A stretch of DNA of 64,000 bases, taken from contig JAFSSP010000002.1 in the NCBI GenBank assembly GCA_017450945.1, forward strand, positions 8,405 to 72,404, read 5' to 3'. The first letter of the stretch is position 1; the number at the start of each line of letters is the position of its first letter. The position numbers and the translations under genes were made by a program. This document shows, piece after piece, positions 3,224-26,278 of this stretch. The notes below the pieces were generated by a model. It searched no databases. It was not told the DNA's origin and saw only the letters and a list, made by a program, of their open reading frames with translations. The stretch is from Clostridia bacterium. Lineage in GTDB: Bacteria > Bacillota > Clostridia > Oscillospirales > CAG-272.

Positions 3224-4189
3224 ATGAAAACCTGGAAACTGCTTTTGGGGATCGGTGGCACGCTTGCGCTCGGAAGCGCCGCGGCAATGATCTGGACCTA
3301 TGAAAAAGCCTTTCGCCCACAAAACGCGCGCGAAAAGATCCCGGAAAACCTGCCGGATCTTCGTCAGGTAGACGACTACCGCGACGAGATCTTCCACAAC
3401 ATGGAAACCTTTCAGGCGCATGCGTGCGAAGAGGTTTTCATCCAATCTCAGGACGGCCTGCGTCTGCACGGGCGCTTTTACATGGGAGAGGCCGGCGCAC
3501 CGCTTGTGATCGCCTTTCACGGTTTTCGTTCCAGCTCTTTGCGCGATCTGAGCGGCGGTATGGAGTTTTACCGCTCGCACGGGCTGAGTCTGCTTTTGGT
3601 CGATCAACGCGCTTGCGGCGAAAGTGAGGGCCGGGCCATTACCTTTGGGATCAAAGAACGGTACGATTGCCTTGCCTGGGCGCTTTATGCCGATGAAAGG
3701 CTCGGCGGTAAGACGCCGATCTTCCTCTCGGGCATTTCGATGGGGGCTGCGACCGTGCTGATGGCCTCCGACCTCGATCTGCCTGCATCGGTCAAAGGGA
3801 TCATTGCCGACTGTCCCTACACCTCCCCCGAGGATATTCTGGTCAAAGCAGGCGGAGAGATGCACTTTCCGACGCTCCCCGCACGTCTTCTGCTCAGAAG
3901 CAGTGCAAGAGTGCTCGGCGGCTTTGGACTGAACGAATCCTCGGCCGAAAAAGCCGTTGCAAACACCAAAGTTCCGCTCCTCATTCTGCATGGAGAGGAC
4001 GATGATTTTGTTCCCACCGCCATGGGAGAGGCCATTGCAAAAACGGCAAAGGAAGGCATGGCCGAGTTTTACACCTTCCCGGGCGCCGCGCACGAATTCT
4101 CCTATCTCTCGGACAAAGAGAGATACCAAAGACTTGTCTGCGACTTTATTCTCAAAAACAGCGGGTATGATCTCTTAAAAAAAGCATAG
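3224..4189 (+). CDS. Membrane-anchored alpha/beta hydrolase (paralog 1)
   Basis: N-terminal TM helix, GISMGAAT nucleophile elbow, LHGEDD and PGAAH motifs. RBS AAGGAGG. Confidence 0.85.
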   Translation: MKTWKLLLGIGGTLALGSAAAMIWTYEKAFRPQNAREKIPENLPDLRQVDDYRDEIFHNMETFQAHACEEVFIQSQDGLRLHGRFYMGEAGAPLVIAFHGFRSSSLRDLSGGMEFYRSHGLSLLLVDQRACGESEGRAITFGIKERYDCLAWALYADERLGGKTPIFLSGISMGAATVLMASDLDLPASVKGIIADCPYTSPEDILVKAGGEMHFPTLPARLLLRSSARVLGGFGLNESSAEKAVANTKVPLLILHGEDDDFVPTAMGEAIAKTAKEGMAEFYTFPGAAHEFSYLSDKERYQRLVCDFILKNSGYDLLKKA

Positions 4190-4267
4190 AAACCGCCTTG
4201 TTTTTCTTGCAAAGAGCCGCGCTGTGTGATAGAATAGAAGCAAACAAAATCCGTAAGGAGATGCACG

Positions 4268-5644
4268 ATGTATTTTTCTCAAGATGCCGTTTGGAGACTG
4301 ATCCTGCAATTCATGATTCTGTTCGGTGCCATCCTCGCCGGCAACATGATCCGCAGGCAGATTCCGTTTATCCGTAAATTTTATATTCCCTCGGCGCTCA
4401 TCGGCGGGGTGATATTATTCGGGCTCAAACAGATCCCGGCCGTGGCAAACGTTCTGAACGACGACACCATGCAAATGGTCACCTACCACTGCCTGGGGCT
4501 TGGCTTTGCCGCCATGGCGATCAAAACGCCGAAGGAAAAGAAAAAAGTCCCGACCGTCAAAATTGTGGAAAGCGGCGCCATTATGGCAAGCTCCTATTTG
4601 CTCCAGGCCATTCTCGGCCTTGCCGTTTCGATCGCGCTCTTCTTTATCATGAAATCCTTTTATGCCGCAGGCCTGATTTTGCCGATGGGCTTTGGTCAGA
4701 GCACCGGCAGTGCGCTCAACTGGGGCAACATTTTTGAAGCAGAGCACGCCTTTGAGGGCGGTTCCTCCTACGGTCTTGCCGTGGCCTCGATCGGATTTCT
4801 CGTCGGCTCGGTCGTCGGCGTCATCTCGCTCAACCACTACATCCGCAAAGGAAAGGTCAAACCCAGACGTCAGAACACCGAAGAGGTCGAAGTGCTTTCC
4901 GAAAAGAACGAGATCCCGAATTCCGAGTCGGTCGACAAGCTCTCGATCCAGTTTTGCTTTGTTGCGCTCGCCTACGGACTTTCCTACGGCTTTATGAAAC
5001 TCCTCGCCCTGACCGGCGTCAAAGCTGTAGCCGAGCTTGCCTGGGGACTCAACTTCCTGTGGGCGCTCCTCTTTGGTTTTCTCATTCGCCTGACCGTGCA
5101 AGCGCTCAACAAACGCAAGATCGTCAACCACAATTACGTCAGCAATCACCTCATGGACCGCATCAGCGGATTCTGTTTTGACCTCATGATCGTTGCGGGC
5201 GTGGCGGCCATTGACTTTGAGGACATTCGCAAAAACTGGATTTTGCTCCTTGTCACCTGCACACTCGGCACCATTTTTACCTTCTTCTATGTCAAAAAAG
5301 CGACCAAGCAGGCCTACCCGGGATACGAGATCGAGGGCTTTGTCACCAACTTCGGCACGGTTACAGGCACGGTTTCTACCGGTATGATCCTGCTCCGCGA
5401 GATCGACCCCAGCTTTGTCACCCCCGCGGCCTCCAACATCGTCCTGCAAAACATCCCCTCGCTCGTCATGCTCTCGCCTCTGCTCCTTTTCATGAGCTTT
5501 GCGGCCTCGAGCCTGACCAACACCTTCATCATGCTCGGCGTGTATATTCTTTTGTTTGTCGCCTACAACCTCTTCTTATTCCGCAAAAAGATCTTCAAAA
5601 AGAAGTTTTCCAAAGCCGATGACGAGTGGAGTGAAGAGCAGTGA
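4268..5644 (+). CDS. gltS: Sodium/glutamate symporter family (GltS-like) transporter
   Basis: 458-aa polytopic protein. N-terminus IRKFYIPSALIGGVILFGLK parallels GltS FLKKYTIPEPVAGGLL. RBS AAGGAG. Confidence 0.65.
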   Translation: MYFSQDAVWRLILQFMILFGAILAGNMIRRQIPFIRKFYIPSALIGGVILFGLKQIPAVANVLNDDTMQMVTYHCLGLGFAAMAIKTPKEKKKVPTVKIVESGAIMASSYLLQAILGLAVSIALFFIMKSFYAAGLILPMGFGQSTGSALNWGNIFEAEHAFEGGSSYGLAVASIGFLVGSVVGVISLNHYIRKGKVKPRRQNTEEVEVLSEKNEIPNSESVDKLSIQFCFVALAYGLSYGFMKLLALTGVKAVAELAWGLNFLWALLFGFLIRLTVQALNKRKIVNHNYVSNHLMDRISGFCFDLMIVAGVAAIDFEDIRKNWILLLVTCTLGTIFTFFYVKKATKQAYPGYEIEGFVTNFGTVTGTVSTGMILLREIDPSFVTPAASNIVLQNIPSLVMLSPLLLFMSFAASSLTNTFIMLGVYILLFVAYNLFLFRKKIFKKKFSKADDEWSEEQ

Positions 5645-6810
5645 AGAAAAAAGCAAGAAGCGACAAATTTTACCGGAAGACCTTCCTCTTCTTTCGCCCG
5701 CTCTTTTGCCTGGTGGCAAAAATGAAACTCGGCGTAAAAGCAAAACAGCCGAAAAAGTTTGACGAACCGATCCTCATTTACTCCAACCACACGACCGACC
5801 TCGATTTTCTTGCGGTGTCGGCGCATATCAAAAATCATTTTTATCTGGTTTGCAGTCGCCACATCCTTGCAATGGGGCTGACCGGCTGGCTCATCGAAAA
5901 GCTCTTTCATCCGGTCGCGGTCTTCAAAGGCTCGGTCAAGGGCGGAGAGATGCTCGATCTGCTCCGCAGGATCAAGCGCGGCAACAACGTCCTCGTTTTC
6001 TGCGAGGGGCGCCTCTCGCACAACGGCAGGACACAGCCGATCGGCATTGCCGCAGCACAGCTTGCAAAGGCGGCTAAGTGTCGACTGGTCACCTTCCGCA
6101 CCGACGGTGGCTTTTTCAAGCAACCGCGCTGGCAAAAAGGCATGAACCCAGGCAAACTCTTTGACAGTGGGATCGTGAACGAATACTCAAAAGAAGAACT
6201 TGCCGCGCTTTCGGACGCAGAACTCCTTGAAAAAATCGAAAAGGATCTTTACACCGACGCCTACGAAGAACAAAAAAAGCGGATGCAAAAGCTCAAATTT
6301 CCGCACGGCGTGGGAGAGATTCTCAACTACTACTCGCTCTGCCCTGCCTGCCATGACGAAAGCCTGGTTTGCAAGGACGGCTTTACCCTTGCCTGCAAGA
6401 ATTGCGGCTATGAGATGCGCTGGAACGAGTACGGATTTTTTGAAAGCGAAAAACCGATCGTAAAAACGACCGCCGAATGGGAGGCACTCGAACAAAAGGC
6501 CTATTCTTCCCGCTTTTCAGAGGGCAAATTCCTTGCCGACGACGGCGTCTCGCTCTTTGCCACCGACGAAGCCTTTCAAAAAACGCCGCTCGGCACCGGG
6601 ACGCTTGCAAGCTCGGCCGAAGGCCTCTCGTTTGGAGAGCGATCTTTCCCCTTTTCCGAAATGGAAGGCCTCGAAGTGCTCGCGGGCGGCGCCTCGCTCG
6701 TCTTTTCCAGCAAGGGAGAGCATTTTCTTCTCACCACAGACGGCGGGAATCTTGCAAAATACCTCTACCTCTACGAGTGGGGGAAAAAGCAATCGACAAA
6801 AGAATCATAA
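5641..6810 (+). CDS. PlsC-type lysophospholipid acyltransferase with C-terminal zinc-ribbon extension
   Basis: HX4D box NHTTDLD, FCEGR (FPEG-like) box, and CPACH..CKNCG zinc ribbon. GTG start overlaps the gltS stop (GTGA). Confidence 0.75.
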   Translation: MKKKARSDKFYRKTFLFFRPLFCLVAKMKLGVKAKQPKKFDEPILIYSNHTTDLDFLAVSAHIKNHFYLVCSRHILAMGLTGWLIEKLFHPVAVFKGSVKGGEMLDLLRRIKRGNNVLVFCEGRLSHNGRTQPIGIAAAQLAKAAKCRLVTFRTDGGFFKQPRWQKGMNPGKLFDSGIVNEYSKEELAALSDAELLEKIEKDLYTDAYEEQKKRMQKLKFPHGVGEILNYYSLCPACHDESLVCKDGFTLACKNCGYEMRWNEYGFFESEKPIVKTTAEWEALEQKAYSSRFSEGKFLADDGVSLFATDEAFQKTPLGTGTLASSAEGLSFGERSFPFSEMEGLEVLAGGASLVFSSKGEHFLLTTDGGNLAKYLYLYEWGKKQSTKES

Positions 6811-6816
6811 AAACAA

Positions 6817-6852: not shown

Positions 6853-6881
6853 TTGACAATTCGAGTGGCAAGTGATAAAAT
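6853..6881 (+). promoter_or_regulatory. Promoter of tRNA-Ser (TTGACA-17-TAAAAT)
   Basis: TTGACAattcgagtggcaagtgaTAAAAT, about 19 nt upstream of the tRNA 5' end. Confidence 0.7.
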
Positions 6882-6899: not shown

Positions 6900-6988
6900 G
6901 GAGAGGTATCGAAGCGGTCATAACGAGGCGGTCTTGAAAACCGTTTGACAGCAATGTCACATGGGTTCGAATCCCATCCTCTCCGCCA
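6900..6988 (+). tRNA. tRNA-Ser (anticodon UGA), CCA encoded
   Basis: GGAGAGG acceptor, anticodon loop CUUGAAA, long variable arm, GGGTTCGAATCCC T-arm, CCTCTCC-G-CCA. Confidence 0.93.
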
Positions 6989-7149
6989 AAATCAAAGGGG
7001 AGCCCCACAAGGGTTCCTTTTGATTTTGCGAAAGCGATGTGGATGAGAACACATCGCCGTTTTTGCAAAGCAAAAATCGGCATACGGAGGCGAAACCGAA
7101 AGCACGCAAGGGTGCTGTTTCGGCACCCTTTTGTTTTGCCCCGGAACAG

Positions 7150-7178
7150 TTGACATTTTGTCGAAAAAGGTTTAAAAT
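7150..7178 (+). promoter_or_regulatory. Promoter of the fakA-degV-plsX-acpP operon (TTGACA-17-TAAAAT)
   Basis: TTGACAttttgtcgaaaaaggttTAAAAT. Confidence 0.65.
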
Positions 7179-7232: not shown

Positions 7233-8870
7233 ATGGAAACCCGAGTGCTTGACGGCGAGCTGTTTTTGAAAATGGTGCGCTCCGGCGCGGCCAATCTGAA
7301 CGCAAAGAGACAGATCGTCAACGACCTGAACGTTTTTCCTGTCCCGGACGGTGACACCGGCGACAATATGTTTATGACCATCGACGCAGGTTGCGCGGAG
7401 TCTGCCGACAAATCGCTCGGAAAGACCGCAAAAACCGTGGCGGACGGCATGCTGCTCGGCGCCAGAGGCAACTCGGGCGTGATCCTCTCCAAGATCTTCT
7501 CGGGCATTGCAAACGGTCTTGCGGGAATCGAGAGCGCCGACGTCGGCGTCTTCGGGCAGGCCCTTGAAAAAGGGATTGAGTCCTCCTACGGAGCCGTTGC
7601 AAACCCGGTGGACGGCACCATCCTTTCGGTCAACCGCGACGCGGTCAAATTTGCAAATTCCAATCTCTCGGAGGGATCGACCTTCCAGAGCTATTTTGAT
7701 GATTTGATCGGCGAGATGAACGCGTCTCTCGAGCGCACGCCGGAGGAGCTCGCCGTCTTAAAAGAGGCCGGCGTGGTCGACAGCGGCGGCGCGGGACTCC
7801 TTTACATTGCCGAGGGCGCAAAAGCGCTGCTGGACGGATCCGAGCTTGCCTACACGGCAGGATCGGTATCGGCAAAAAAGATCGACGTCTCGACCTTTGA
7901 CGAGAACAGCACCCTCGAATTCGGCTACTGCACCGAATTTTTACTCCGCCTGCAAAACGCGAAAGTGCCGGTGGAAAGTTTTGACGAGCGCGTGATCGTC
8001 GACTACCTCATGGCAGTCGGAGAATCGGTCGTCGCCTTCCGCGAAGGGAGCATCTTAAAGGTGCACGTTCACACGATGCACCCGGGCGAAATTCTCAATG
8101 AATGCCAGAAGTACGGCGAATTTTTGACCTTGAAGATCGAAAACATGATGCTTCAGCACAACGAGGCGACCGTCAAAAATTCCTTTGAAACAAGAAAGCC
8201 GCACAAGAGATACGGGATCGTCTCGGTCGCATCCGGCGAGGGGATGAAAAAAACCTTTTTGGAGCTTGGCGTTGACTGCGTGATTGACGGTGGGCAGAGC
8301 ATGAATCCGCCGGTCGGAGATTTTCTCAGGGCCTTTGACGAGATCAACGCCGACGCGATTTTCGTCTTCCCCAACAATCCAAACATCCTGCTCACGGCAA
8401 AAGAAGCCGCGTCGCTTTACGATAAAAAAGCGATCCGCATCATTCCCTCGCGAACGGTCGGCGAAGGATACGCCGCAGTCTCCTGCCTCGACACCGAAAA
8501 TGAGAACGCCGACGAAGTCGAAGCCGGGGCGATCGAAATGATGGAGAGCGTGGTGACCGGCCTTGTTGCAAAGGCAAACCGGGATACCGAAAAGGATGAC
8601 GTTCTCGTCCGGGCCGGCGACTACATCGGCTACGACGGGCGCGAGAGGATCTACACCGACAAAAAGACAGCCGTGGAGGCCGCTCTTTCCCTTGCGGAGG
8701 CGTTAGGAGCAAAAAATTACGACGTTCTGCTTTTGATCTGCGGAAAGACCTCCGAAAAGGAGGCGGCCGACGGTCTTTGCGAAGTTCTTACAAAAAGTTA
8801 TCCGCGCACAGAAGTGATCAAGATCGACGGCGGACAGGCCGTGGAAGACTATATTTTGGTATTAGAATAA
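7233..8870 (+). CDS. fakA: DAK2-domain fatty acid kinase subunit (YloV/FakA family), copy 1
   Basis: NVFPVPDGDTGDNM DhaL/Dak2 motif. 545 aa, matching YloV/FakA architecture. Confidence 0.85.
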   Translation: METRVLDGELFLKMVRSGAANLNAKRQIVNDLNVFPVPDGDTGDNMFMTIDAGCAESADKSLGKTAKTVADGMLLGARGNSGVILSKIFSGIANGLAGIESADVGVFGQALEKGIESSYGAVANPVDGTILSVNRDAVKFANSNLSEGSTFQSYFDDLIGEMNASLERTPEELAVLKEAGVVDSGGAGLLYIAEGAKALLDGSELAYTAGSVSAKKIDVSTFDENSTLEFGYCTEFLLRLQNAKVPVESFDERVIVDYLMAVGESVVAFREGSILKVHVHTMHPGEILNECQKYGEFLTLKIENMMLQHNEATVKNSFETRKPHKRYGIVSVASGEGMKKTFLELGVDCVIDGGQSMNPPVGDFLRAFDEINADAIFVFPNNPNILLTAKEAASLYDKKAIRIIPSRTVGEGYAAVSCLDTENENADEVEAGAIEMMESVVTGLVAKANRDTEKDDVLVRAGDYIGYDGRERIYTDKKTAVEAALSLAEALGAKNYDVLLLICGKTSEKEAADGLCEVLTKSYPRTEVIKIDGGQAVEDYILVLE

Positions 8871-8887
8871 AAACGGAGGAAAACGTC

Positions 8888-9757
8888 ATGCTCAAACTGT
8901 TTACCGACACCGATACCGACATCACCCCGGAGGTTGCCCGCGAGTACGGCTACGAGCTCATCAGTATGCCCTACAGCGTGGACGGCAAAACCATTTACCC
9001 CTACGTTGATTTTGAAACATTCGATTCCAAAACCTTTTACAATATGCTCCGCGGCGGCGTGCTCCCCACGACCAGCGCCATCAGCGAGCAAAAATACGCC
9101 GAATACTTTGAGCCGCATTTTAAGGCCGGCGACGACATCCTCTACGTCCATTTCTCGGCGGCCATGACGGTCACCTTTGACGCCATGGATAAAGCGGTCG
9201 CCGCGCTGCTTGAAAAATACCCCGAGAGAAAATTCTATTCGATCGATACCAAGGGCATTACCATCGGAAGCTACAACATCGTCCGCGAGATCGGCGACCA
9301 GTATAAAGCCGGCAAGAGCGCAGACGAGATTGTTGAGTGGTCAAAGACCGAGATCGACAAATTTGCCACCTATTTCTTTGCCGACGATCTCAAATTTTTC
9401 CGCCACAGCGGCAGAGTCAGCGGTCTTGCGGCAGTCATGGGAACGCTCGTCGGCATCCGCCCGATCATCACCATGAATGCAGAGGGCAAAATGGTCAGCG
9501 TCGGCAAGGAGAAAGGACGCGTCAAGGCCATGGAGCGTCTGGTCGCACTCGTCGAAGAGCTCGGCGAGGACGTAAAAGATCATCGCATCATCGTGGGACA
9601 TTCGGATTCGCTTGACATTGCCGAAGAGGTCGGAAAAATGTTAAAAGAAAAGCTCGGCGGCGACCTGAACATTGAATACGTCGAGGTCAATCCGACGGCA
9701 GGCAGCCATTGCGGCCCCAACGGCGTGGGCGTTTGCTTCCACGCAAAGCACAGATAA
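8888..9757 (+). CDS. DegV-family fatty-acid-binding protein (FakB-like), copy 1
   Basis: Internal ATG at 8888 follows a GGAGGA RBS. LFTDTDTDITPE start and PTTSAIS (TSxPS-like) motif. Confidence 0.85.
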   Translation: MLKLFTDTDTDITPEVAREYGYELISMPYSVDGKTIYPYVDFETFDSKTFYNMLRGGVLPTTSAISEQKYAEYFEPHFKAGDDILYVHFSAAMTVTFDAMDKAVAALLEKYPERKFYSIDTKGITIGSYNIVREIGDQYKAGKSADEIVEWSKTEIDKFATYFFADDLKFFRHSGRVSGLAAVMGTLVGIRPIITMNAEGKMVSVGKEKGRVKAMERLVALVEELGEDVKDHRIIVGHSDSLDIAEEVGKMLKEKLGGDLNIEYVEVNPTAGSHCGPNGVGVCFHAKHR

Positions 9758-9766
9758 GGAGAAATC

Positions 9767-10888
9767 ATGGTTGTTGTAAAAGAGGTCAAAACCAAAAAGG
9801 AACAAAAAGAATTCCTTGATTTCCCGCTGAATTTGTACCGGGGCAACGATTGCTTTGTCCCGCCGCTCTACGGCGACGAAAAAAAGATCTTTCGCGCCGA
9901 CTATGTTTACAACGACACCTGCGACGCGGTCTACTTTAACGCCTACCGCGACGGAACGATCGTCGGGCGCATCTCGGGCATCATTCAGCGCGCCAGCAAC
10001 GAAAAACGGAATGAAAAGCGCGCCCGCTTTACGCGTTTTGACAGCATTGACGACGGCGAAGTTGCAAAGGCGCTCTTTGACGCGGTCGAGACTTGGGCAA
10101 AAGAAAAAGGGATGGACACCGTCTGCGGCCCGCTCGGATTTTCGGATCTGGAGCGCGAGGGGCTTCTCATCGAGGGCTTTGACCAGCTCTCCACCTTTGA
10201 GGAGCAGTACAACGCCGCCTACTACCAGACGCTCATCGAAAACCTCGGCTACAAAAAAGAGGTCGACTGGACCGAGAGCAAACTGCGTGCGCCGAAGGAC
10301 TACGACGGCTCGCTCGATAAAATGACCGAGTACATCATGAAGCGTTACAACCTGCATTTTGGCCCGGCAAAGAACGTAAACGATTTTCTTGACAAGTACG
10401 CCGACGGTTTTTTTGCCCTACTCGACGAATCCTACGACCAGATCTACGGCTCGGTCCCCTTTACCGACGCCATGAAAAAAATGATGATCGACAACTTCAA
10501 GCTCATCGTCGATCTGCGCTTTGTCGCCGTCATTCTTGACGAAAACGACAAAATCGTTTGTCTTGGCATCTGCTTCCCGTCGATCGCGCGCGCCGTGCAA
10601 AAATCGAAGGGCAGACTGACTCCGGCGGCACTTGTCCGCCTGCTTCGCGCCATCAAACACCCGAAGGTCATTGACTTGGGACTGGTCGGCGTTGCGCCCG
10701 AATACCTCAACCGCGGCATCAGCACCGCCATTTCGGCCGAACTCATCCGCATGCTCTCGAAGGACGGTATTGAGTACGCCGAAACCAACCTCAACCTTGA
10801 AAACAACTACGCGATCCAGAACCAGTGGAAGCGGTTTGACGAAACCAAGCACAAGCGCCGCCGCTCCTACGTCAAGCCTCTGGACTGA
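9767..10888 (+). CDS. Two-domain GNAT-fold acyltransferase-like protein
   Basis: 373 aa. C-terminal NRGISTAISAELIRML resembles GNAT motif A (R/Q-x-x-G-x-A). Sits between degV and plsX with 9-12 nt gaps. Confidence 0.5.
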   Translation: MVVVKEVKTKKEQKEFLDFPLNLYRGNDCFVPPLYGDEKKIFRADYVYNDTCDAVYFNAYRDGTIVGRISGIIQRASNEKRNEKRARFTRFDSIDDGEVAKALFDAVETWAKEKGMDTVCGPLGFSDLEREGLLIEGFDQLSTFEEQYNAAYYQTLIENLGYKKEVDWTESKLRAPKDYDGSLDKMTEYIMKRYNLHFGPAKNVNDFLDKYADGFFALLDESYDQIYGSVPFTDAMKKMMIDNFKLIVDLRFVAVILDENDKIVCLGICFPSIARAVQKSKGRLTPAALVRLLRAIKHPKVIDLGLVGVAPEYLNRGISTAISAELIRMLSKDGIEYAETNLNLENNYAIQNQWKRFDETKHKRRRSYVKPLD

Positions 10889-10900
10889 CGGAGGGAGAAC

Positions 10901-11917: not shown

Positions 11918-11932
11918 CGGAGGAATCACATC

Positions 11933-12160: not shown

Positions 12161-12175
12161 TCGACCGATCCAATC

Positions 12176-12202
12176 AAAAAAGCGGCGCGTGCGCCGCTTT
12201 TT
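12176..12202. terminator. Bidirectional terminator between acpP and the convergent hydrolase
   Basis: AAAAAGCGGCGC-gt-GCGCCGCTTTTT. Confidence 0.8.
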
Positions 12203-13250: not shown

Positions 13251-13267
13251 AAAGAAAACAACTATGT

Positions 13268-13296: not shown

Positions 13297-13313
13297 ACAT
13301 TTTTGCGGGTATT

Positions 13314-19357: not shown

Positions 19358-20305
19358 TTATGCTTCTGTATCGTCATTGAAACAGCGTTTCAAAAAACGG
19401 TCAACCGTTGTGTCGCCCTCCTCGGAGAGCTTTTGATAGCAAAGCGCGTGTGCCGCCCCCGGAACCGCAAGGAATTCCTTTTTGGAGGCACAGGCTTCAA
19501 AATTTTTGCGTCCGACCGAGATCGGGACTGTGCGATCCTCCTCGCCGTGGAGAAAGAGCGCGGGGATTTTTGTTTTTTTCAAGGATTCTTCAACCGAAAC
19601 CTTGAGGTCTTTGTGAAAGGCGCAAAGGCCGACCAGTCGTGCGACCGGCCGCATGAGGAAGATCGGCAGGTGCCTTTGTCTGGAATCACGAATGTACTGC
19701 CCGTATGGGCTTTCAAAGCCGCAATCAAGAATCATGCCCTTCACGCGACCGCCGTCCAGTTTGTCCGAGGCGTAGGCAATGGTGGCGCATCCCATGGAAA
19801 TACCCCAAAGAACGGCTTCCTCGGTATTGGTGTTTTCAAAAAGCCAGTCGATCCATTCTAAAAGATCCTCTTCTTCCACAACGCCGAGCGAGGGACGTCC
19901 CCCGCGGCTTGGTGTGTGCGCTCTGGAATAGGGGAGAAAAATGTTGTATCCTTTTTCGAGGAATTCGTTTGCGGCTCCGGCAAAATTGGTCAGCGGCCGC
20001 ACGCAAAATCCGTGGCAAAGAACAAGCGTTTTTTCGCTCTCCCCGGGATAGTAGTCGGCACAGAGCTGCAACTTTCCTTTGCGGCGCGCAACATGTTGCA
20101 CCGGGCGGCGCTCCAGACGTTCGACGTCGGCGCGCATCTCTTCAAGATAGGGTGCGGCGCTATCCTCTTCGGGGTGCTTTTCTTCCCAGGGATATTTCGG
20201 GGTTTTCTGGCGGAACACACCGAGAAAGGAGGCGATGACAGGCCCCACGATGAACAAAAGGTAGAGCCCGATCAGAGAGAGCAGAATAATCCAGAAGATT
20301 TCCAT
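19358..20305 (-). CDS. Membrane-anchored alpha/beta hydrolase (paralog 4)
   Basis: TM helix, GISMGCAT, LHGEEDRTVP and PGAAHA motifs. Closest to paralog 1. RBS AAGAGG. Confidence 0.85.
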   Translation of the reverse strand: MEIFWIILLSLIGLYLLFIVGPVIASFLGVFRQKTPKYPWEEKHPEEDSAAPYLEEMRADVERLERRPVQHVARRKGKLQLCADYYPGESEKTLVLCHGFCVRPLTNFAGAANEFLEKGYNIFLPYSRAHTPSRGGRPSLGVVEEEDLLEWIDWLFENTNTEEAVLWGISMGCATIAYASDKLDGGRVKGMILDCGFESPYGQYIRDSRQRHLPIFLMRPVARLVGLCAFHKDLKVSVEESLKKTKIPALFLHGEEDRTVPISVGRKNFEACASKKEFLAVPGAAHALCYQKLSEEGDTTVDRFLKRCFNDDTEA

Positions 20306-20314
20306 AAAACCTCT

Positions 20315-21262
20315 TTACAGGGAAATTGCTTTTTGTGCCGGAACAAGCTTTTGCAGGGATCTGCCCATCTTTGCTTCGTAGCGCCAGATGAGCGCCACGC
20401 GCGCGGAGTCTCCGCAAAGGGCAAGATACAGCGGAGGCGTCCCCTCATAAATGCCACAGAGGGACAGGGCGTTCTCTTTGAGAGAGGATTGCCGATAGAC
20501 TTCTCGCGCCCGCTCTTCCACTTCGCGACAGAAAAGCTCCTTCTCTCCCGCGGGGATCTCTTTTGCAAACAGCCCGACCGGCTCCTGCGAAACGGCGACA
20601 AGCGCGGCGGTATCGGTGGTGCAGATCGAAAACCGGAAAATCCCGGACACAAAGCCGGATTTGGTTCTTTTGAGCTTCCAGTTCTTTGGTTCGTAGGCAA
20701 GACTTTTTGAGACGGCATGCCCCAAAAGCGTCCAGGCAAACAGTTCTTTTTGGCTCTTTTCCGGCGGCATCTTTTTGATGGCGCGCAGAAGCGCTTTTGG
20801 CAAAGGACTGTCAAGCGGGGGCAATTCCTCCGAAAAGGACGCGATATAGACGTCAAGCACCGGACGCGCGCGCCAGCTTTTGCGCGCGGCCTCCTCCAGT
20901 TCGCAAAAATGTCTGCCGAACACGCACTCGTTGGCAAAATGCTCGCAGTTGTTCTTGAGAATGTCGTAACCGCCTTCTCCGATCCTTTCGCGGGCGATCT
21001 TCATCGTTTTTTTCGGAGAAAAGCGACTCCGCCGCTCGGCGCGGTCGAGCGAGGCGACCTCCACCAGCTTGCCGGCGGAAAACTCGTCAATGCTCACACT
21101 TTTTACAAAGATTTTGGAGGCGTCGCGGTTCAGCCCGTCGAGCGGTGCGTCTCCGAACTCGATGACCTCATCGTCCGAGCAGTAAACGCCGTAGTGACAA
21201 ATGGCGCCCACATGGATGCGGATCATATCTCCCGGAGAGCAATCGGCAAGGATCCACTTCAT
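20315..21262 (-). CDS. LRAT/PLAAT-like (permuted NlpC/P60) domain fused to a Sfp-type PPTase-like domain
   Basis: N-terminal half has GDMIRIHVGAICHYGVY (His box) and NNCEHFANECVFG (Cys box). C-terminal half parallels Sfp (PEKSQK.., LLGHAVSKSL, FRFSICTT..LVAVSQEPVGLFAKE), but the GxD Mg site is not conserved. Confidence 0.6.
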   Translation of the reverse strand: MKWILADCSPGDMIRIHVGAICHYGVYCSDDEVIEFGDAPLDGLNRDASKIFVKSVSIDEFSAGKLVEVASLDRAERRSRFSPKKTMKIARERIGEGGYDILKNNCEHFANECVFGRHFCELEEAARKSWRARPVLDVYIASFSEELPPLDSPLPKALLRAIKKMPPEKSQKELFAWTLLGHAVSKSLAYEPKNWKLKRTKSGFVSGIFRFSICTTDTAALVAVSQEPVGLFAKEIPAGEKELFCREVEERAREVYRQSSLKENALSLCGIYEGTPPLYLALCGDSARVALIWRYEAKMGRSLQKLVPAQKAISL

Positions 21263-21510
21263 TTCAGTTTTTTCTCGATGTAATCGACCACGTCGCCAAG
21301 CGTAACAAAATCGTTCATGCCGACGTTGTCAAAACGCATGGAAAAAGTCTCCTCAATGGCAAGGATCATATAGAGCATCCCGATCGAGGAAAGACCGACG
21401 TCGCTGGTGAGATTGGAATTTTCTTCAATCGCGTCCAACGAGTCTCTTTTGGCCGGGTCGGCTGAGAGCAGAATGCTTTTGAGCGTATCGATGATCTGTT
21501 GTCTTTCCAT
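21259..21510 (-). CDS. Acyl carrier protein, non-canonical attachment motif
   Basis: 83 aa. DVGLSSIGMLYMILAIEE occupies the place of DLGxDSLD. Overlaps its neighbours by 4 nt on one side and is 1 nt from the other. Confidence 0.75.
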   Translation of the reverse strand: MERQQIIDTLKSILLSADPAKRDSLDAIEENSNLTSDVGLSSIGMLYMILAIEETFSMRFDNVGMNDFVTLGDVVDYIEKKLK

Positions 21511-21511: not shown

Positions 21512-23023
21512 TCAGTTCTTTTCCAGTTTGTAGCGGATGATCTTCATGCTGGGCGTGCGGACAAAATCGGTCTCGCGGATCACGATCTTCTGCGCGCGCT
21601 CGTAAGCCGGGAGCGATTGATTGACCTTCACCAGCTCGGCCATGAGAACTTCCATCGGCTTCTCGGCGCCGAGCTTTGCGATCTCGGTCATACGCGGGAC
21701 GACCTCAAGCGAGAGATAGTGCTTGCCGTTCTCGTCGACCGCCTCGAAGATCTGGCTGTCCTGCACAAGTTCGATCTTGTTGAAGAAGGCTTCGACTTCG
21801 GCGGGAGAAATGTTCTCTCCGTTGTCGAGAATGATGAGTTCCTTTTTGCGGCCGGTGATGTAGAGGAAGCCCTCGTCGTCAAAGCGGACAAGGTCGCCGG
21901 TCTTGAACCAACCGTCTTCAAAGGCGGCCGCGTTCTCCTCGGGATCGCCCACATAGCCGTCCATCAGGTTTGCACCCTTGAGCCAGAGCTCGCCGTCCAC
22001 GATCTTTACCTCCTGGTTTGGGTAAAGGAGGCCGACCGAATCCGGCTTTGCGAGGAAATCCGGGTTGCCGGAAACCAGGTTCGCAGTTTCGGTAAGTCCG
22101 TAGCCCGGGCAAAGGTGAATGCCCATTTTCTCATACTCGGTTACAAGGTAGGGGGCAACTGCGGCCGCGCCGCAGATGATGTATTTCATATCCTCGCCGA
22201 GCATGTTCTTGCCGAATCTGCGCGAGAGGGCGAGCGCCATCTCGGCAAGCGCCGGAACCACCACCAGCATGGTGGGGCGGAACATGGCGATATCGCGGAA
22301 GAGATCCTTGTTATCCTTGCAGATAAAGAGCGCGCTTCCGGTGTAAAGCGAGGTCAGAAGGTTGCGGATAAGTCCAAAGACGTGCGAGAGCGGGATGGCG
22401 AGCAGATAGCGCTGGCCGTACACCACCTCCAGACCGTAACAGCCGTTTGCGGTGCCTTGCATGACCGCGCGGTTGGAAAGCAGAGCTCCCTTGCTCTTGC
22501 CAGTCGTGCCGCCGGTGAACATGATGGCGCAGCCGTCCTCGGGTTTTACGTTTTTGTTGATCGGGCTTCCCTTCTCCGCCGCCGCATCGGTAGAAATGCA
22601 GGGAATGCCTTTTGCCTTTGCGATGTTCAGTTTGCCCTCCAGCACGGGAGCATACAGGATCGCCTTGGCCGAAAACTTCATGGTCACGCCGAACAGACTC
22701 ATCTCGTCGAGCTGTGCAGGAATCACGGCGGCGGTCATGCCGCTGGTCGAAACGGCAAGAAAAGCCTTGACAAACTCATAGGAGTTGGGGGCAAAGACCG
22801 AGACCCGGTCGCCGGCCTTGAGTCCGGCACCCAGAAGCGCGGTGCGAAGGATCGCCGCGTCGGCTTCCAATTCCGAGAAGGTGTGGGTTTGTCCATCGTA
22901 AACGATGGCCGGGCTGTCGGCATACTTCATAAGGCAGTTCTCCCACATCTCGCTTGTTGTGCCAAAGGCGCGGATGCTCGAGAAGAGCTCGGGGGACTGG
23001 TAATCTGCAAAGGTCTTTTTCAT
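21512..23023 (-). CDS. Acyl-AMP forming fatty-acid ligase (AMP-binding family)
   Basis: FTGGTTGKSKG, GYGLTET and GWFKTGDLVRFDDEGFLYITGRKKELII motifs. Confidence 0.88.
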   Translation of the reverse strand: MKKTFADYQSPELFSSIRAFGTTSEMWENCLMKYADSPAIVYDGQTHTFSELEADAAILRTALLGAGLKAGDRVSVFAPNSYEFVKAFLAVSTSGMTAAVIPAQLDEMSLFGVTMKFSAKAILYAPVLEGKLNIAKAKGIPCISTDAAAEKGSPINKNVKPEDGCAIMFTGGTTGKSKGALLSNRAVMQGTANGCYGLEVVYGQRYLLAIPLSHVFGLIRNLLTSLYTGSALFICKDNKDLFRDIAMFRPTMLVVVPALAEMALALSRRFGKNMLGEDMKYIICGAAAVAPYLVTEYEKMGIHLCPGYGLTETANLVSGNPDFLAKPDSVGLLYPNQEVKIVDGELWLKGANLMDGYVGDPEENAAAFEDGWFKTGDLVRFDDEGFLYITGRKKELIILDNGENISPAEVEAFFNKIELVQDSQIFEAVDENGKHYLSLEVVPRMTEIAKLGAEKPMEVLMAELVKVNQSLPAYERAQKIVIRETDFVRTPSMKIIRYKLEKN

Positions 23024-23691
23024 GATCTATCTCCTTCTGCAATTTTTTTGAGTTCTGCTTCTTTTTCTCTTAAAAATTCACTGAATTTCTGAATGCTGTC
23101 CATGGACGGCATGGCGCCAAGCCTCTCTCGGACGTCGATCGGCTCGCCGATGCAATAAACCGTGCGGCGATACCATTTTTCGGGCGTTTTTGAATAGATC
23201 GGAACGATCGGAACGCCGCTCCGGATCGCCATCATCACCAAGCCGGATTTGAAAACGTCCACCTCGGCTTCACTGGCGTTCACATGCCCTTCGGGATAGA
23301 TCGAAACGATGTTCCCAGCGGTCAGGTGATCGGTGATCTCGCGGAAGGTGCCGAGATTGAAGTTTTTGCGGTTCACCTCGATGCAGTGAAAGGCGTAGGT
23401 GAAGAGCCAGCGGGTAAACTTTTTTTCAAAAAGCTCGTCGGCGGCAACAAAGTGCATGCGCCGGTACCAAATTGAAAACTGGTCGCGCGCGGGATCGAGA
23501 AGACCTGTGTGGTTAAAAGACAGGACGGCACCGCCGCAGATCTTCTTTTTTGCGGCCGCATTCTCAAATCTCCACTTGGGCCGCAGAATGAGAAGCCAGC
23601 CCGGTGCGGCCAGAAGCCGACCAAAATCGTACAGAGCGTAGCGAAGATCGATGATGCGCGCTTTTTTATTTCTTTGCTTTTTTTGCTTCAT
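23020..23691 (-). CDS. PlsC-type acyltransferase (LPLAT) B
   Basis: ATG at 23691. NHTGLLD (HX4D) and IYPEGH boxes. Overlaps the upstream LPLAT by 26 nt and the downstream ligase by 4 nt. Confidence 0.75.
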   Translation of the reverse strand: MKQKKQRNKKARIIDLRYALYDFGRLLAAPGWLLILRPKWRFENAAAKKKICGGAVLSFNHTGLLDPARDQFSIWYRRMHFVAADELFEKKFTRWLFTYAFHCIEVNRKNFNLGTFREITDHLTAGNIVSIYPEGHVNASEAEVDVFKSGLVMMAIRSGVPIVPIYSKTPEKWYRRTVYCIGEPIDVRERLGAMPSMDSIQKFSEFLREKEAELKKIAEGDRS

Positions 23692-24313
23692 ACTCTTCCA
23701 AAAGATCGCCCAGTTCCATGATCCTTTCCCGGTATTTTTCCGAAATGCGGGCGAGCTGTTCCTTTTCGGACAGCGACGTGTCAAGATAGGCCAAGGTATC
23801 GATCGGTTTCCCGATCAAAACCGAAAGGCGTTTCTTTTTGAAATAAGAGCCGTTGGTATAAACCGGGATTACCGGAACGCCGCTCGAGAGGGCGAGGTAG
23901 GCCACGCTCGGCACAAAGGGGAGCGGCCGCGCCTCACCCGGAAGCGGAAGCCGACTCTCCGGGAAGACCAGAACCACGCCGCCCTTTTCCAGAATCTTTT
24001 TGGATTTTTCCACAAATCCGTAGTCATGGGCCTTGCGATCCACGCGGATGCCGCCCAGCCATTTGAGCAGGATGCGCAGTCCCTTTTTTTCAAAGAGGAC
24101 TTCGGCCATCTGCGCCCGGACGGTTCTGAAGAAAAAGACAAACAGGATCGCGACATAATCGAGGACCGAGGTGTGGTTGCTGATGATGATCGCGGGCCCT
24201 TTGATCCTTTTGCTTTGTATTTGTTTATCCTCGTAAAAGACGCGCGGCCGAAAGCAAATCACTTCGGTAAGCCAGCCCGTGATCTTTACGAAGGTGTTCC
24301 AAAATGTTATCAT
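23666..24313 (-). CDS. PlsC-type acyltransferase (LPLAT) A
   Basis: NHTSVLD (HX4D) and VFPESRL boxes. RBS AAGGAAG. Confidence 0.8.
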   Translation of the reverse strand: MITFWNTFVKITGWLTEVICFRPRVFYEDKQIQSKRIKGPAIIISNHTSVLDYVAILFVFFFRTVRAQMAEVLFEKKGLRILLKWLGGIRVDRKAHDYGFVEKSKKILEKGGVVLVFPESRLPLPGEARPLPFVPSVAYLALSSGVPVIPVYTNGSYFKKKRLSVLIGKPIDTLAYLDTSLSEKEQLARISEKYRERIMELGDLLEEYEAKKAKK

Positions 24314-24343
24314 GTATTCTTCCTTTTCAAGAAGCGTTTCGGG

Positions 24344-26278
24344 TCAGCTTTTCTTTTGCTCCCGGATGTAGTCGGCGATCTGTCCTATGGTGCAAAGATT
24401 CAACCCGCCCGAGACCGGGAAGGGTACCGAAAACTCTTTTTCGATCCGCACGGCCAAAGAAAAGTAATCGAGGCTTGTGCCTTCCCCGTCCGAGAAAAAG
24501 TGGTAATCCTCTCCCATGGTATCAACCGGACGGCCGAGCGCCTCCGAAAAGAGGAGCGCCACGCGCCGGGATAGCTCGTCGCCAAGTTCAGAGGTCGCGC
24601 TCCCAAAGGTCAGTTCGGGATATGCGCCTTCTTGGTAGCGTTTTGCGATGCGCCTGCGGTTGAGCTTGATCTCGTCACCAAAAAGCAGGTCTTTCGAGGT
24701 CAGACAGATCTTCCTGATCTGCCCGGTCAGCTGCAATTCGTCCAGCTTTTTTTGCAGAGCGGCGCGCAGGCCGTCGGCAGTCTCTTGATTGATCCTGCGG
24801 TCGACCGAGGCAATGAGAAGAGGCTCGACCCGACTCTCTTTTTTGATGCCGACAAGGCAAATACTCTGCAAGTGCTCGATCTTTGAGAACGCGGCCTCGA
24901 TGATCGTGGGGTTGAGATTTTCCCCGGCCTCTGAGACGACCAGATCGTCGGACCTGCCGAGGATGAAATATCTCCCCCGCTCCTGCTTTGCAAGATCCTT
25001 TGATAAAAACCAGCCGTTCTTTTCGATGCGGCGGTCTCCTTCCAGAACATACTTTGCCGCGGCCGTGGACTTGATGAGAAGCTGACCGCCTTCGTCGACC
25101 GAATACTGCGCCGAGGGGAGCGGTTTTCCGACCGAGCCGCCGTCAAGGATCCTTTTGTCATCCGAAAGCTCCACCGAGGTGATCCCCACCTCGGTCATGC
25201 CGTAACCGTTGGAAAGATGGTAGCCGATCGCGTTGAAGAATTCCAGAACCTCACCGTGGATCTCACTGCCGCCGGTGATCATATAGCTTATGCTTTCGCC
25301 AAAGAGTTTTTCACGCACCTCTTTATAGGCCAGGCGCGAGAACAGCCGCTCGATCGCCGGGAATTTTTGCAGTTTGCGCGAGAGCTCCATGCCCTTTTGA
25401 AACTTCTTTGCAGTCTCTTCCTTGGCTCCGATGGTCTTCATCGCCTCGGCATAGACCCGGTTCCAGAACAGCGGCACGGCAAACAGGTGGGTGACCTTGT
25501 GGCGGCGGATGGTGGAAAGAATGGTATCGGGCGAAAGATCTTTGAGCTCCACCAGCGTGCGCGAGAAAAAGGTGAACCAGGCGTAAAGTGCCACAAACCC
25601 AAAGATGTGATAGAAAGGCAGAAAGGCGAGCAGCTTAAGCTCTCCTTCATAGTGCCGTTTGATCAGTTTGGACTCGGCAAGGATCTCTCTGGTATCAAGG
25701 ATCTGGCAGGCCAACTCTTTTGCCGAGTAAGCGCAGATCTTGACCGTCTCGGACGTGCCGGAAGACATAAAATAAAACTCCTCGCCGAAAGGGGCGTTTT
25801 GGGGAAGCGCGGCGTCGGAGGGTTTCATCTCGTCCGTCCGGATGGTGCGGATCGAAAATTCTTCTCCACCCGAGATCACGGCAACCGCCTTCATGCGGGC
25901 AAGCGCGTCCTCCAGGATCTCTTTTCCGAGGCGCGCGTTCAAAAGCAGTGGGCAAAAGCCTGCTCTGAGGATCGCCCAATAGCACTCGATCCAGGCAAGG
26001 CCGTTTTCAAGAAAGAGGCCTACCGCACTGCCGGTCGGCGCATCCGAAAGCATCTGTTTCAGCCCCGGGGCAAGACGCTCGATCTCATCCTTGCATTCCC
26101 CGTAGGTCGTTTTCTTGATGCGATAGCCCTCGCTGCTCTCAAATAAAATATTCTCCCGCTCGGAAAACATGAGTTCATAGAGCGCAGAGAAGGATCTATC
26201 TGTTTGTTCCAACCTGCCGAGCTTCCAGGAAACATACTGATCGATGCTTCTGAAGCCGGCCAAATTCTGAATTTTCAT
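24344..26278 (-). CDS. Acyl-AMP ligase fused to a C-terminal carrier (PP-binding-like) domain
   Basis: ATG at 26278. SSGTSETVK, GYGMTE and GWFLSKDLAKQERGRYFILGRSDDLVV motifs. C-terminus DGEGTSLDYFSLAVRIEKEF resembles a carrier Ser motif. Confidence 0.8.
   Translation of the reverse strand: MKIQNLAGFRSIDQYVSWKLGRLEQTDRSFSALYELMFSERENILFESSEGYRIKKTTYGECKDEIERLAPGLKQMLSDAPTGSAVGLFLENGLAWIECYWAILRAGFCPLLLNARLGKEILEDALARMKAVAVISGGEEFSIRTIRTDEMKPSDAALPQNAPFGEEFYFMSSGTSETVKICAYSAKELACQILDTREILAESKLIKRHYEGELKLLAFLPFYHIFGFVALYAWFTFFSRTLVELKDLSPDTILSTIRRHKVTHLFAVPLFWNRVYAEAMKTIGAKEETAKKFQKGMELSRKLQKFPAIERLFSRLAYKEVREKLFGESISYMITGGSEIHGEVLEFFNAIGYHLSNGYGMTEVGITSVELSDDKRILDGGSVGKPLPSAQYSVDEGGQLLIKSTAAAKYVLEGDRRIEKNGWFLSKDLAKQERGRYFILGRSDDLVVSEAGENLNPTIIEAAFSKIEHLQSICLVGIKKESRVEPLLIASVDRRINQETADGLRAALQKKLDELQLTGQIRKICLTSKDLLFGDEIKLNRRRIAKRYQEGAYPELTFGSATSELGDELSRRVALLFSEALGRPVDTMGEDYHFFSDGEGTSLDYFSLAVRIEKEFSVPFPVSGGLNLCTIGQIADYIREQKKS

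Follow-up and report, generated by a model that had tools for sequence, protein, structure and literature searches.

How is a dense concentration of acyl-lipid genes in an uncultured gut bacterium organised, and what could so many enzymes acting on acyl chains do together? This question is raised by a 64-kb stretch of DNA (64,000 nucleotides of contig JAFSSP010000002.1, from a Clostridia bacterium of the order Oscillospirales), hereafter called the window, in which almost every gene of a 23-kb region (positions 3224 to 26278) touches acyl-lipid chemistry. As described below, this region is made of three units. The largest is an operon on the minus strand, M3 (26377-13264), which is kept as a block in many gut and rumen species and which we tentatively read as a pathway for the salvage of preformed lipids; it is accompanied by two shorter units on the plus strand, M1 (3224-6810) and M2 (7233-12160).

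Gene identities were established by scanning the open reading frame (ORF) calls against Pfam and NCBIfam. The gene content listed in the initial annotation was largely recovered: two FakA proteins, two DegV/FakB proteins, PlsX, three carrier units, two AMP-ligases and four alpha/beta-hydrolases. Its count of four lysophospholipid acyltransferases (LPLATs) has to be lowered, as PF01553 is present in three genes only (5641-6810, 23666-24313 and 23020-23691) and the Pfam scans of the window genes gave no fourth. The other acyltransferase-like genes encode an LRAT/PLAAT-family protein (20315-21262) and a tandem GNAT protein (9767-10888). An acyl-lipid domain was found in 17 of the 22 genes of the region versus none of the ~25 genes scanned outside it (Fisher p = 1e-8). 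The genes for type II synthesis of fatty acids (FASII) are absent from the region, as first noticed, and fab, acc and fapR are equally absent from the remainder of the window (0 matches in the scans), and enzymes for condensation, reduction or carboxylation are likewise missing from the window scans. A bias towards activating and re-esterifying preformed acyl chains is real, with two Fak systems, two ligase-carrier pairs, PlsX and five acyltransferase-type genes. However, the 23 kb do not constitute a single unit but three transcription units, each with its promoters and terminators.

Conserved synteny provides stronger evidence for lipid gene clustering than does this enrichment count. We used the LRAT protein as a synteny probe because it is the most distinctive gene product of M3 and is encoded in the middle of the operon. 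A search with this protein returned 114 clusters, most of which carry both PF04970 (LRAT) and PF01648 (phosphopantetheinyl transferase, PPTase), and an exhaustive profile search of 1.84 billion representatives retrieved 641 clusters at 50% identity (E <= 1e-30). Relatives of this LRAT-PPTase gene are present in at least 486 GTDB species, and the carriers found are uncultured gut or rumen metagenome-assembled genomes (MAGs) of Oscillospirales or Christensenellales type. A scan guided by a profile, in which each GTDB species was represented by one genome, yielded 80 loci together with 10 kb on each flank, and the ORFs of these loci were labelled by BLASTP against the window proteins. M3 is kept as a block in 69 of these 80 sampled species, in a long form (type A, 40 loci) or a short form (type B, 29 loci), the remaining 11 loci being incomplete contigs. 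The order in type A, to which the window belongs, is ligase-carrier, LPLAT, LPLAT, ligase, acyl carrier protein (ACP), LRAT-PPTase, hydrolase, DegV, a transporter of the major facilitator superfamily (MFS) in some loci, FakA, hydrolase, small zinc-ribbon/transmembrane protein and hydrolase. In type B the order is ligase-carrier, MFS, LPLAT, LPLAT, ligase, ACP, LRAT-PPTase, hydrolase and zinc-ribbon/transmembrane protein, with no Fak genes. Six core genes are present in 49 to 53 of the 53 loci with enough upstream DNA. Among the 30 type A loci with enough downstream DNA, DegV2, FakA2 and the hydrolase-fold protein H3 are present in all, the hydrolase H4 in 29 and the MFS transporter in 22. The closest relative (60% identity of the LRAT protein) has the same operon as the window. 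The boundaries of the block are sharp, since the flanking genes vary from locus to locus. The invariant core of M3 comprises two ligases, each with a carrier, two PlsC-like LPLATs, the LRAT-PPTase fusion, an MFS_2 transporter, a membrane-anchored esterase and a small zinc-ribbon membrane protein, to which the long form adds FakA2 and FakB2, one more esterase and an alpha/beta-fold protein whose nucleophile is a cysteine.

Does this conservation extend to the whole region? In none of the 80 loci do the 10 kb on either side of the LRAT gene contain PlsX, AcpP, FakA1 or DegV1, and M2 and M3 were thus rejected as a single conserved island. The conserved clustering foreseen in the initial annotation consequently holds for M2 and for M3, each strongly conserved, but not for the 23-kb whole, which is specific to this genome: among the window and the 80 loci, M2 lies next to M3 here alone. 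The contig of the closest relative ends before an adjacency of M2 and M3 could show. A horizontally acquired island was also considered and rejected, the GC content being flat (0.52-0.55) across the region.

M3 is a 13.1-kb, tightly packed operon. It is preceded by a perfect promoter, TTGACA-17-TATAAT, the -10 element of which is extended by TG (26377-26349, minus strand), and is followed, just past an ORF of 119 amino acids (aa), by an intrinsic-terminator-like hairpin (13300-13264, minus strand) with a 17-bp stem, nine GC pairs and a T-rich tail. From the first ligase gene to the zinc-ribbon gene, neighbouring genes lie -26 to +54 nt apart. The promoter, the terminator and this packing define M3 as a 13-gene transcription unit. 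The M3 promoter stands back to back with a second promoter (26484-26512, plus strand), both being perfect sigma-70-type promoters with 12 of 12 matches; the latter drives a gene for a 69-aa MazE/AbrB-like protein and an ABC-2 exporter (26737-28232), and a flank with these divergent-promoter genes is also present in the closest relative (locus L172).

We describe the thirteen gene products, all encoded on the minus strand, by function. The first gene (24344-26278) encodes a divergent adenylate-forming ligase, AMP1, fused to a C-terminal carrier domain bearing the motif GEGTSLD (PF00501 and PF00550); this ligase-carrier gene is present in 52 of the 53 loci. The second ligase, AMP2, is the product of the fourth gene (21512-23023; PF00501, 206 bits) and has FadD13, MenE and oxalate-CoA ligase as its best relatives in the PDB. 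Both M3 ligases are generic ANL enzymes, nearest to the MenE, oxalate-CoA and FadD13 types. The stop codon of AMP2 lies 1 nt from the start of the fifth gene (21259-21510), which encodes a dedicated acyl carrier protein of 83 aa, ACP2 (PF00550), with a GLSSI serine motif. ACP2 scores under every NCBIfam ACP cut-off, and the phosphopantetheine-bearing serine is kept in both M3 carriers across the orthologues.

The second and third genes encode PlsC-type acyltransferases (PF01553), LPLAT2 (23666-24313; motif HTSVLD; 53 of 53 loci) and LPLAT3 (23020-23691; motif HTGLLD; 50 of 53 loci). The three PF01553 proteins of the window score 41-64 bits against a cut-off of 23, and the HX4D motif is present in each and matched in the listed orthologues. 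The best NCBIfam matches of LPLAT2 and LPLAT3 are PlsC (TIGR00530) and the LPLAT segment of LplT-Aas fusions (PRK08633), all below cut-off, and the sole meaningful sequence relative of LPLAT2 in the PDB is the Thermotoga maritima PlsC (5kym; E = 4e-7).

The sixth gene (20315-21262) is the signature of the operon. Its product combines an LRAT/PLAAT-type Cys-His acyltransferase domain (PF04970, 69.5 versus 24 bits) with an Sfp-type PPTase fold. In the LRAT half, H23 and C106 are invariant and the NCEHF motif is present in 76 of 76 orthologues. The AlphaFold2 (AF2) model of the fusion (predicted local distance difference test, pLDDT, 85.9) matches PLAAT3 and HRASLS2-4 in Foldseek with TM-scores of 0.72-0.82, and its C-terminal half resembles Sfp, AASDHPPT and PptT. 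Both Sfp-type motifs, GxDxE and WxxKE, are preserved in 54 of the 61 full-length orthologues, and eight lineages have the LRAT half alone. In the window protein and in its relative of 60% identity (P0002), neither motif is present and PF01648 was not detected. As judged from the model, the PPTase fold is retained in this genome, with loss of the catalytic motifs. As these motifs are lost and yet both carriers keep their serine, some other PPTase must serve the carriers. The public gene calls for this protein (303 aa) start 12 codons late, the alignment of orthologues favouring the upstream ATG (315 aa; 21226-21262), which overlaps the ACP2 stop codon by 4 nt. We found no description of an LRAT-PPTase fusion in the literature searched.

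The second Fak system is encoded by the eighth and tenth genes. DegV2, a FakB-type fatty-acid-binding protein (18417-19343; PF02645, 198 bits; above the TIGR00762 cut-off), is one gene away from FakA2 (15366-17021), a fatty-acid kinase subunit with the three FakA domains (TIGR03599, 473 versus 396 bits). The presence of a second FakA was initially regarded as an odd duplication. However, FakA1 and FakA2 are only 36% identical, and all 32 type A orthologues, in as many related species, are closer to FakA2 than to FakA1 (mean 45% versus 37%), so that a recent duplication was rejected. The same is observed for the binding subunit: the two DegV proteins share 26% identity, and all 40 orthologues are nearer to DegV2 (mean 55% versus 26%). 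Because all these FakA and DegV proteins of type A are nearer to the M3 copies, FakA2 and DegV2 constitute an old, operon-specific lineage. The catalytic signatures are preserved, with DGDTG in 32 of 32 FakA2 orthologues and the zinc motif GYC.E + H.H[TS] also in 32 of 32.

The remaining genes of M3 encode hydrolases, a transporter and small membrane proteins. H4, the product of the seventh gene (19358-20305; Pfam), is a membrane-anchored alpha/beta-hydrolase with a GISMG nucleophile elbow and has esterases and haloperoxidase-type hydrolases as sequence relatives in the PDB. H3, the product of the eleventh gene (14398-15351; Pfam), is a membrane-anchored alpha/beta-hydrolase-fold protein with a cysteine in its elbow (GICIG). 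The pattern G-[IV]-C-I-G is present in every counted H3 orthologue, where H4 and H2 have a serine, which may point to a transferase that forms a thioester more than to a simple esterase. H2 is the alpha/beta-hydrolase encoded downstream of the M3 terminator, and thus outside the operon, from 12201 to 13163 or 13250 on the minus strand (Pfam Hydrolase_4; elbow AHSAG). Its start codon is uncertain, the longer ORF (to 13250) adding a hydrophobic N-terminus, and the gene is present in 22 of 30 type A loci. H1 (encoded in M1), H3 and H4 each have one N-terminal hydrophobic anchor, and the PDB sequence relatives of these hydrolases are carboxylesterases and monoglyceride-lipase-type enzymes. The transporter encoded by the ninth gene (17064-18383) is an MFS_2 (GPH-type) protein of ~11-12 transmembrane segments (PF13347, 99 bits). 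Its counterparts in type B loci are 31-36% identical to it and are encoded between the first ligase and LPLAT2. A sequence search of the PDB with this transporter returned only spurious matches to phage proteins. Orthology with LplT was rejected, BLASTP and phmmer comparisons with E. coli LplT giving no match. The twelfth gene (13765-14343) encodes a zinc-ribbon protein with three transmembrane segments (PF13240; transmembrane scan), and in many loci the operon is followed by related zinc-ribbon/transmembrane genes (ZnR, U0). The thirteenth (13314-13673) encodes the small membrane protein of 119 aa (family U1; an ORF here, called as a gene in locus L001), homologues of which occupy the same position in eight loci.

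M2 contains, in the order fakA1-fakB1-tandem GNAT-plsX-acpP and on the plus strand, the standard Firmicute route for exogenous fatty acids with one extra conserved gene. A promoter-like site, TTGACA-17-TAAAAT, with 11 of 12 matches (7150-7178, plus strand) precedes fakA1. FakA1 (7233-8870; Dak2, FakA-like_M and FakA-like_C; TIGR03599, 480 versus 396 bits) is the ATP-binding subunit of a fatty-acid kinase and has both the DGDTG aspartate pair and the GYCTEF...VHVHT zinc motif, the roles of these residues being those described for the FakA of streptococci and staphylococci (PMC10848957). It adjoins DegV1, the FakB-type fatty-acid-binding subunit (8888-9757; PF02645, 185 bits; TIGR00762, 203 versus a cut-off of 100). 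Downstream of the tandem GNAT gene are plsX, for the acyl-ACP:phosphate transacylase (10901-11917; PF02504, 321 bits; TIGR00182, 351 versus 243 bits), and the gene for a canonical acyl carrier protein, AcpP (11933-12160; PF00550; TIGR00517, 83 versus 70 bits). The order fakA-degV-X-plsX(-acp) is the same in four independent contexts from other Clostridia, one of them a Lachnospiraceae MAG, and a fifth context (L086) has fakA-degV-X-acp without plsX. Because such operons without fab genes are usual in other Clostridia, the missing fab genes beside plsX-acpP, which had been taken as telling, are uninformative; the Enterococcus plsX-acpB pair (PMC6509188) is arranged likewise.

The extra gene of M2 (9767-10888) encodes a 373-aa protein of tandem-GNAT acyltransferase fold with a weak Pfam GNAT match. 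It has more than 6200 homologues, the best 120 of which are 71-98% identical across Clostridia. The gene lies between degV and plsX in L084, L085 and L168-L171 and between degV and acp in L086, with counterparts at 3305-4429 in L084, 6001-7122 in L086, 7001-8125 in L168 and 7001-8131 in L170. Comparison with the PDB by sequence gave no match, only the fold search being informative: the best Foldseek matches of its AF2 model (pLDDT 84.7) are the tandem GNATs 7q3a, 2wpw and 5kf1, and the fold matches include MAB_4324, the tandem GNAT of the clavulanate pathway and a glucosamine N-acetyltransferase of Clostridium acetobutylicum. We found no description of a GNAT in fakA-plsX operons in the literature, and this protein may represent an unrecognised step of the exogenous fatty-acid pathway. 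In L168, the fakA-degV-GNAT-plsX operon is followed (9987-13416) by genes for an MFS_1 transporter and a 630-aa AMP-binding and PP-binding protein with the architecture of the first M3 ligase, and is preceded by a gene for a DedA(VTT)-LPLAT fusion. These neighbours indicate that lipid genes gather around the fakA-plsX operon elsewhere too.

M1 is a smaller, third module of the same kind as M3, with an esterase, a transporter and an LPLAT, all encoded on the plus strand. The esterase-type alpha/beta-hydrolase H1 (3224-4189; Pfam Hydrolase_4 and Abhydrolase_1) has its single hydrophobic segment, the N-terminal membrane anchor, at residues 6-24 and a GISMG nucleophile elbow. The second gene (4268-5644) encodes a transporter of ten transmembrane segments with the Glt_symporter fold (PF03616, 48.8 bits). 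Its stop codon overlaps the start of the third gene (5641-6810), which encodes LPLAT1, a PlsC-type protein (PF01553; HX4D motif HTTDLD) with weak matches to TIGR00530 and PRK08633. LPLAT1 also has a C-terminal extension of ~230 aa with a zinc-ribbon-like CPAC...CKNC motif (CxxC...CxxC) and no Pfam match. The transporter is not a GltS orthologue, since it reaches 37.5 bits with TIGR00210 against an equivalog cut-off of 310.75 and belongs to the Pfam fold family only; it has 3346 homologues, many in Bacteroidales and all unnamed. The initial annotation had set gltS apart from the lipid genes, together with one tRNA and two small membrane proteins. These exceptions are indeed present, and the MFS_2 transporter has to be added to them, but the GltS-fold gene may be no true exception because it recurs beside LPLAT genes in distant lineages: of 80 distant metagenome loci, 16 have an LPLAT1-like gene immediately upstream of it and in the same orientation. 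This arrangement suggests, without proving it, that the GltS-fold protein is a lipid-linked transporter. H1, the GltS-fold gene and LPLAT1 were rejected as a conserved trio, as only the LPLAT/GltS-like pair recurs and the trio was found elsewhere in a single locus (L048), in another order and adjoining a type B operon. A tRNA-Ser(UGA) gene (6900-6988, plus strand; ARAGORN and Rfam) lies between M1 and M2 as a separate unit outside the lipid system. It has its own promoter-like site (6853-6881) and terminator-like hairpins (7034-7057 and 7108-7130), and these sites, with the promoter-like site before fakA1, separate M1 from M2.

What would M3 do? FakB and FakA convert free fatty acids into acyl-phosphate, which PlsX interconverts with acyl-ACP. 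ANL ligases acting with carrier proteins make acyl-thioesters, PF01553 enzymes transfer the acyl group of a thioester to glycerol-phosphate-type acceptors, and PLAAT/LRAT enzymes take an acyl group from a phospholipid onto their own cysteine and pass it to water or another lipid. The domain identities, conserved motifs, operon structure and synteny of M3 are direct observations, and the reading that we tentatively prefer, although we hold it as somewhat short of probable, is that M3 is a pathway for the salvage and remodelling of preformed acyl chains and lipids. We favour it because M3 has no chain-building enzyme and combines three activation routes with two or three enzymes of acyl transfer, as many as three esterases and one transporter. 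In such a pathway, the MFS transporter would take up ester lipids or lysolipids of the gut or rumen, which the esterases and the LRAT domain would deacylate. The freed fatty acids would then be re-activated, as acyl-phosphate by the second Fak system (Fak2) and as acyl-S-carrier thioesters by the two ligases, and the two LPLATs would finally re-esterify them onto a glycerol-based acceptor.

Several points weigh against this scheme. The substrates of M3, the direction of flux through it and its physiological role are what we infer from its genes. The ligases, being generic ANL enzymes, could activate acids other than long-chain fatty acids, and the MFS protein, with neither detectable similarity to LplT nor an informative PDB relative, could be an exporter. 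The combination of dedicated carriers with a dedicated Sfp-type PPTase is seen more typically in pathways for specialised metabolites than in bulk salvage. In known Firmicutes, Fak and PlsX suffice for the incorporation of fatty acids, which leaves two additional ligase-carrier pairs unexplained. Finally, the short form of the operon entirely lacks Fak genes, and no related locus among the 80 has M2 beside M3.

In the main rival scheme, M3 would be a cluster for the biosynthesis of a specialised acylated product, either a lipid or a small molecule; examples would be a head group with two or three acyl chains, a lipoamino acid or a signalling lipid. The carriers would be loaded with two fatty acids, which the LPLATs and the LRAT domain would transfer to a specific acceptor; supply or trimming of the acyl chains would fall to the Fak pair and the esterases, and the MFS protein would export the product. 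The M3 carriers, which score below all housekeeping ACP cut-offs, are consistent with such a cluster, as is an in-cluster Sfp-type PPTase intact in 54 of 61 full-length orthologues; however, the PPTase is decayed or lost in some lineages, including this one, that retain the rest of the operon. The pairing of ligase and carrier resembles that of the fatty-acid-amide clusters of gut Clostridia (PMC13310621) and that of AasR/AcpR for sphingolipids (PMC9386255), but no condensation, glycosyltransferase, aminotransferase or head-group-forming enzyme is encoded in or beside the block in the 80 loci. Likewise, the sharp and portable boundaries of the block in varied genomic contexts and the MFS gene within it would suit a specialised product, whereas up to three esterases and a fatty-acid kinase suggest turnover and not assembly. 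We regard a cluster of this type as possible, although rather unlikely.

A further reading concerns the organism as a whole, which could be a fatty-acid auxotroph without FASII, the 23-kb region being an integrated lipid-acquisition island. The 64 kb contain neither fab nor acc genes, but they are a small part of the genome, and fakA-plsX operons without neighbouring fab genes are usual in Clostridia. All three units handle preformed acyl chains; however, they are not adjacent in relatives, and with its uniform GC content the region does not look like an island. The window comes from an uncultured MAG of the ruminant gut, and many uncultured gut species lack fatty-acid synthesis (PMC6784871), yet the M2 carrier scores as a canonical AcpP, which is compatible with a FASII set elsewhere in the genome. 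We consider auxotrophy with an integrated island unlikely.

The salvage reading also has a bolder version, which we consider doubtful. M3 would be an unrecognised lipid-acquisition machine of Gram-positive bacteria and a functional counterpart of the LplT-Aas lysolipid system: lysolipids or glycerophosphodiesters would be imported and diacyl lipids rebuilt on private carriers, while the acyl-phosphate made by Fak2 would feed H3, which would be a new type of acyl-phosphate-dependent acyltransferase. If this were true, at least two enzyme steps of exogenous-lipid use in gut Clostridia, counting that of the tandem GNAT, would be missing from current pathway maps, and the lipid dependence of many uncultured Oscillospirales could be explained. 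Least convincing, and in our view improbable, is a role of M3 in membrane defence or repair, in which lysolipids produced by host or competitor phospholipases would be re-acylated and toxic free unsaturated fatty acids, abundant in the rumen and gut, esterified for protection and not for nutrition: the nearest functional analogue, LplT-Aas, shields E. coli from phospholipase A2 (PMC11416262), all carriers of the operon are gut or rumen organisms, fatty-acid activation follows several parallel routes and the esterases and small membrane proteins are membrane-anchored, but the block has no conserved companion among stress regulators or efflux components, the promoter is perfect and of constitutive type, and the mechanism overlaps with that of salvage so that sequence alone cannot separate the two.

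The rest of the window encodes the ABC-2 exporter, a G3P-dehydrogenase-like flavoprotein, sugar and amino-sugar enzymes, ArgG and ArgH, CysS, PriA, RsmB and others. The flavoprotein, just past the region (28424-29851, minus strand), combines DAO and BFD-like [2Fe-2S] domains, an architecture typical of anaerobic glycerol-3-phosphate dehydrogenase-type enzymes, and may extend the glycerolipid theme. At the edge of the window (131-685, plus strand) is a gene for a 184-aa protein with a C-terminal PqqD domain, of the recognition-element type of ribosomally synthesised and post-translationally modified peptides. Its neighbour, the ORF at 682-1158, has no family match, and the two may be the remnant or the edge of a peptide-modification locus. 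A bacterial class A RNase P RNA (1450-1809, minus strand; 236 bits) explains why the long ORFs between 1250 and 2400 have no protein-family matches. Gut-1 small RNA (Rfam RF01706, 64.8 bits; 39491-39565, plus strand) is encoded directly 3' of a tRNA-Met and tRNA-Glu pair (39299-39451). Other observations in the window are a two-domain protein with DUF6937 and DUF6938 (31641-33077, plus strand) and a 1004-aa ORF with zero Pfam matches (48072-51086, plus strand).

All the parts of M3 belong to known families, and the operon itself seems to be undescribed. In the literature searched, neither M3 nor a second operon-bound FakA is described. The M3 core proteins reach no curated NCBIfam family except the generic YloV and DegV models, and in public databases they are annotated as 'lecithin retinol acyltransferase family protein', 'acyl-CoA ligase' or 'hypothetical'. 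Whether antibiotics against FASII work is decided by the use of exogenous fatty acids, which also shapes how gut bacteria handle dietary and host lipids. Current models of it are drawn from a few pathogens with one FakA, PlsX and PlsC, and the operon of gut and rumen Clostridia is far more elaborate; the conserved second Fak system and the fusion gene would surprise a lipid specialist. M3 is a clonable gene set that makes the question of an LplT-Aas-like repair or uptake of lysolipids in Gram-positive bacteria testable, and it also bears on which lipids to add to media for growing these organisms.

How do these units compare with described systems? Like the Fak-PlsX systems of Staphylococcus aureus, streptococci and Enterococcus faecalis, M2 has FakA, FakB, PlsX and an ACP, here in one operon, and both FakA copies of the window resemble the described protein in their three domains, Mg-ATP aspartate pair and zinc motif (PMC10848957). 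In E. faecalis, plsX-acpB is cotranscribed without fab genes, and AcpB takes exogenous acyl groups from acyl-phosphate through PlsX (PMC6509188). M2 likewise pairs plsX and acp without fab genes, although the window ACP scores as a canonical AcpP. It departs from the described Fak-PlsX pathway by its conserved tandem GNAT between fakB and plsX. Moreover, in contrast to described Fak systems, in which one FakA serves several FakB proteins, a second FakA is here co-inherited with its own FakB in another operon.

The signature protein of M3 resembles the mammalian PLAAT/HRASLS/LRAT proteins, as the N-terminal 120 residues of the fusion match PF04970 and superpose on human PLAAT2-4; in contrast to mammalian PLAAT proteins, the bacterial protein is soluble, lacks a membrane anchor at its C-terminus and carries a fused Sfp-type PPTase. 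The ligase-carrier pairs have closer precedents in bacteria. In the fatty-acid-amide (FAA) clusters of gut Clostridia (OaaA/OaaACP/OaaC), a free-standing adenylating enzyme loads an exogenous fatty acid onto a dedicated carrier (PMC13310621). M3, also in gut Clostridia, similarly pairs a free-standing ligase with a dedicated carrier, but in contrast to these clusters, which resemble nonribosomal peptide synthetases, transfer in M3 would be ensured by PlsC-type LPLATs and the LRAT domain, and the operon has two ligase-carrier pairs, esterases and a kinase. No condensation domain was found in the window genes scanned, nor as a recurrent family beside the block in the 80 loci. The AasR/AcpR system of Rhodobacteria also has a ligase and a private carrier, which route fatty acids to sphingolipids (PMC9386255); there the acceptor enzyme is serine palmitoyltransferase, whereas M3 has no pyridoxal-phosphate enzyme and the acceptor enzymes are LPLATs.

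LplT-Aas, so far identified in Gram-negative bacteria only (PMC11416262), is the nearest functional analogue of M3. M3 combines the same kinds of activities, with an MFS transporter, a PlsC-type LPLAT, a ligase of the adenylate-forming acyl-ACP synthetase type and a carrier. In LplT-Aas (E. coli b2835-b2836; fused forms PRK08633) the LPLAT is fused to the synthetase. This bifunctional Aas is not found in M3, where LPLAT and ligase are separate genes, each present twice, with NCBIfam scores far under the equivalog cut-offs, and where the carriers are dedicated and not the housekeeping ACP. M3 further adds the LRAT-PPTase, esterases and a Fak pair, and its MFS protein, of the MFS_2/GPH type, is related to LplT at the superfamily level only. 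AMP2 is 29% identical to the ligase domain of E. coli Aas (E = 8e-31) and the LPLAT comparison with Aas gives 23%, similarities at the family level. Because the ligase and LPLAT similarities remain at this level and the transporter shows none, M3 is placed outside the LplT-Aas system. On these sequence comparisons, our best reading is that M3 would work like LplT-Aas supplemented with a Fak system, not as an orthologue or member of it but as an operon built from different lineages of the same families.

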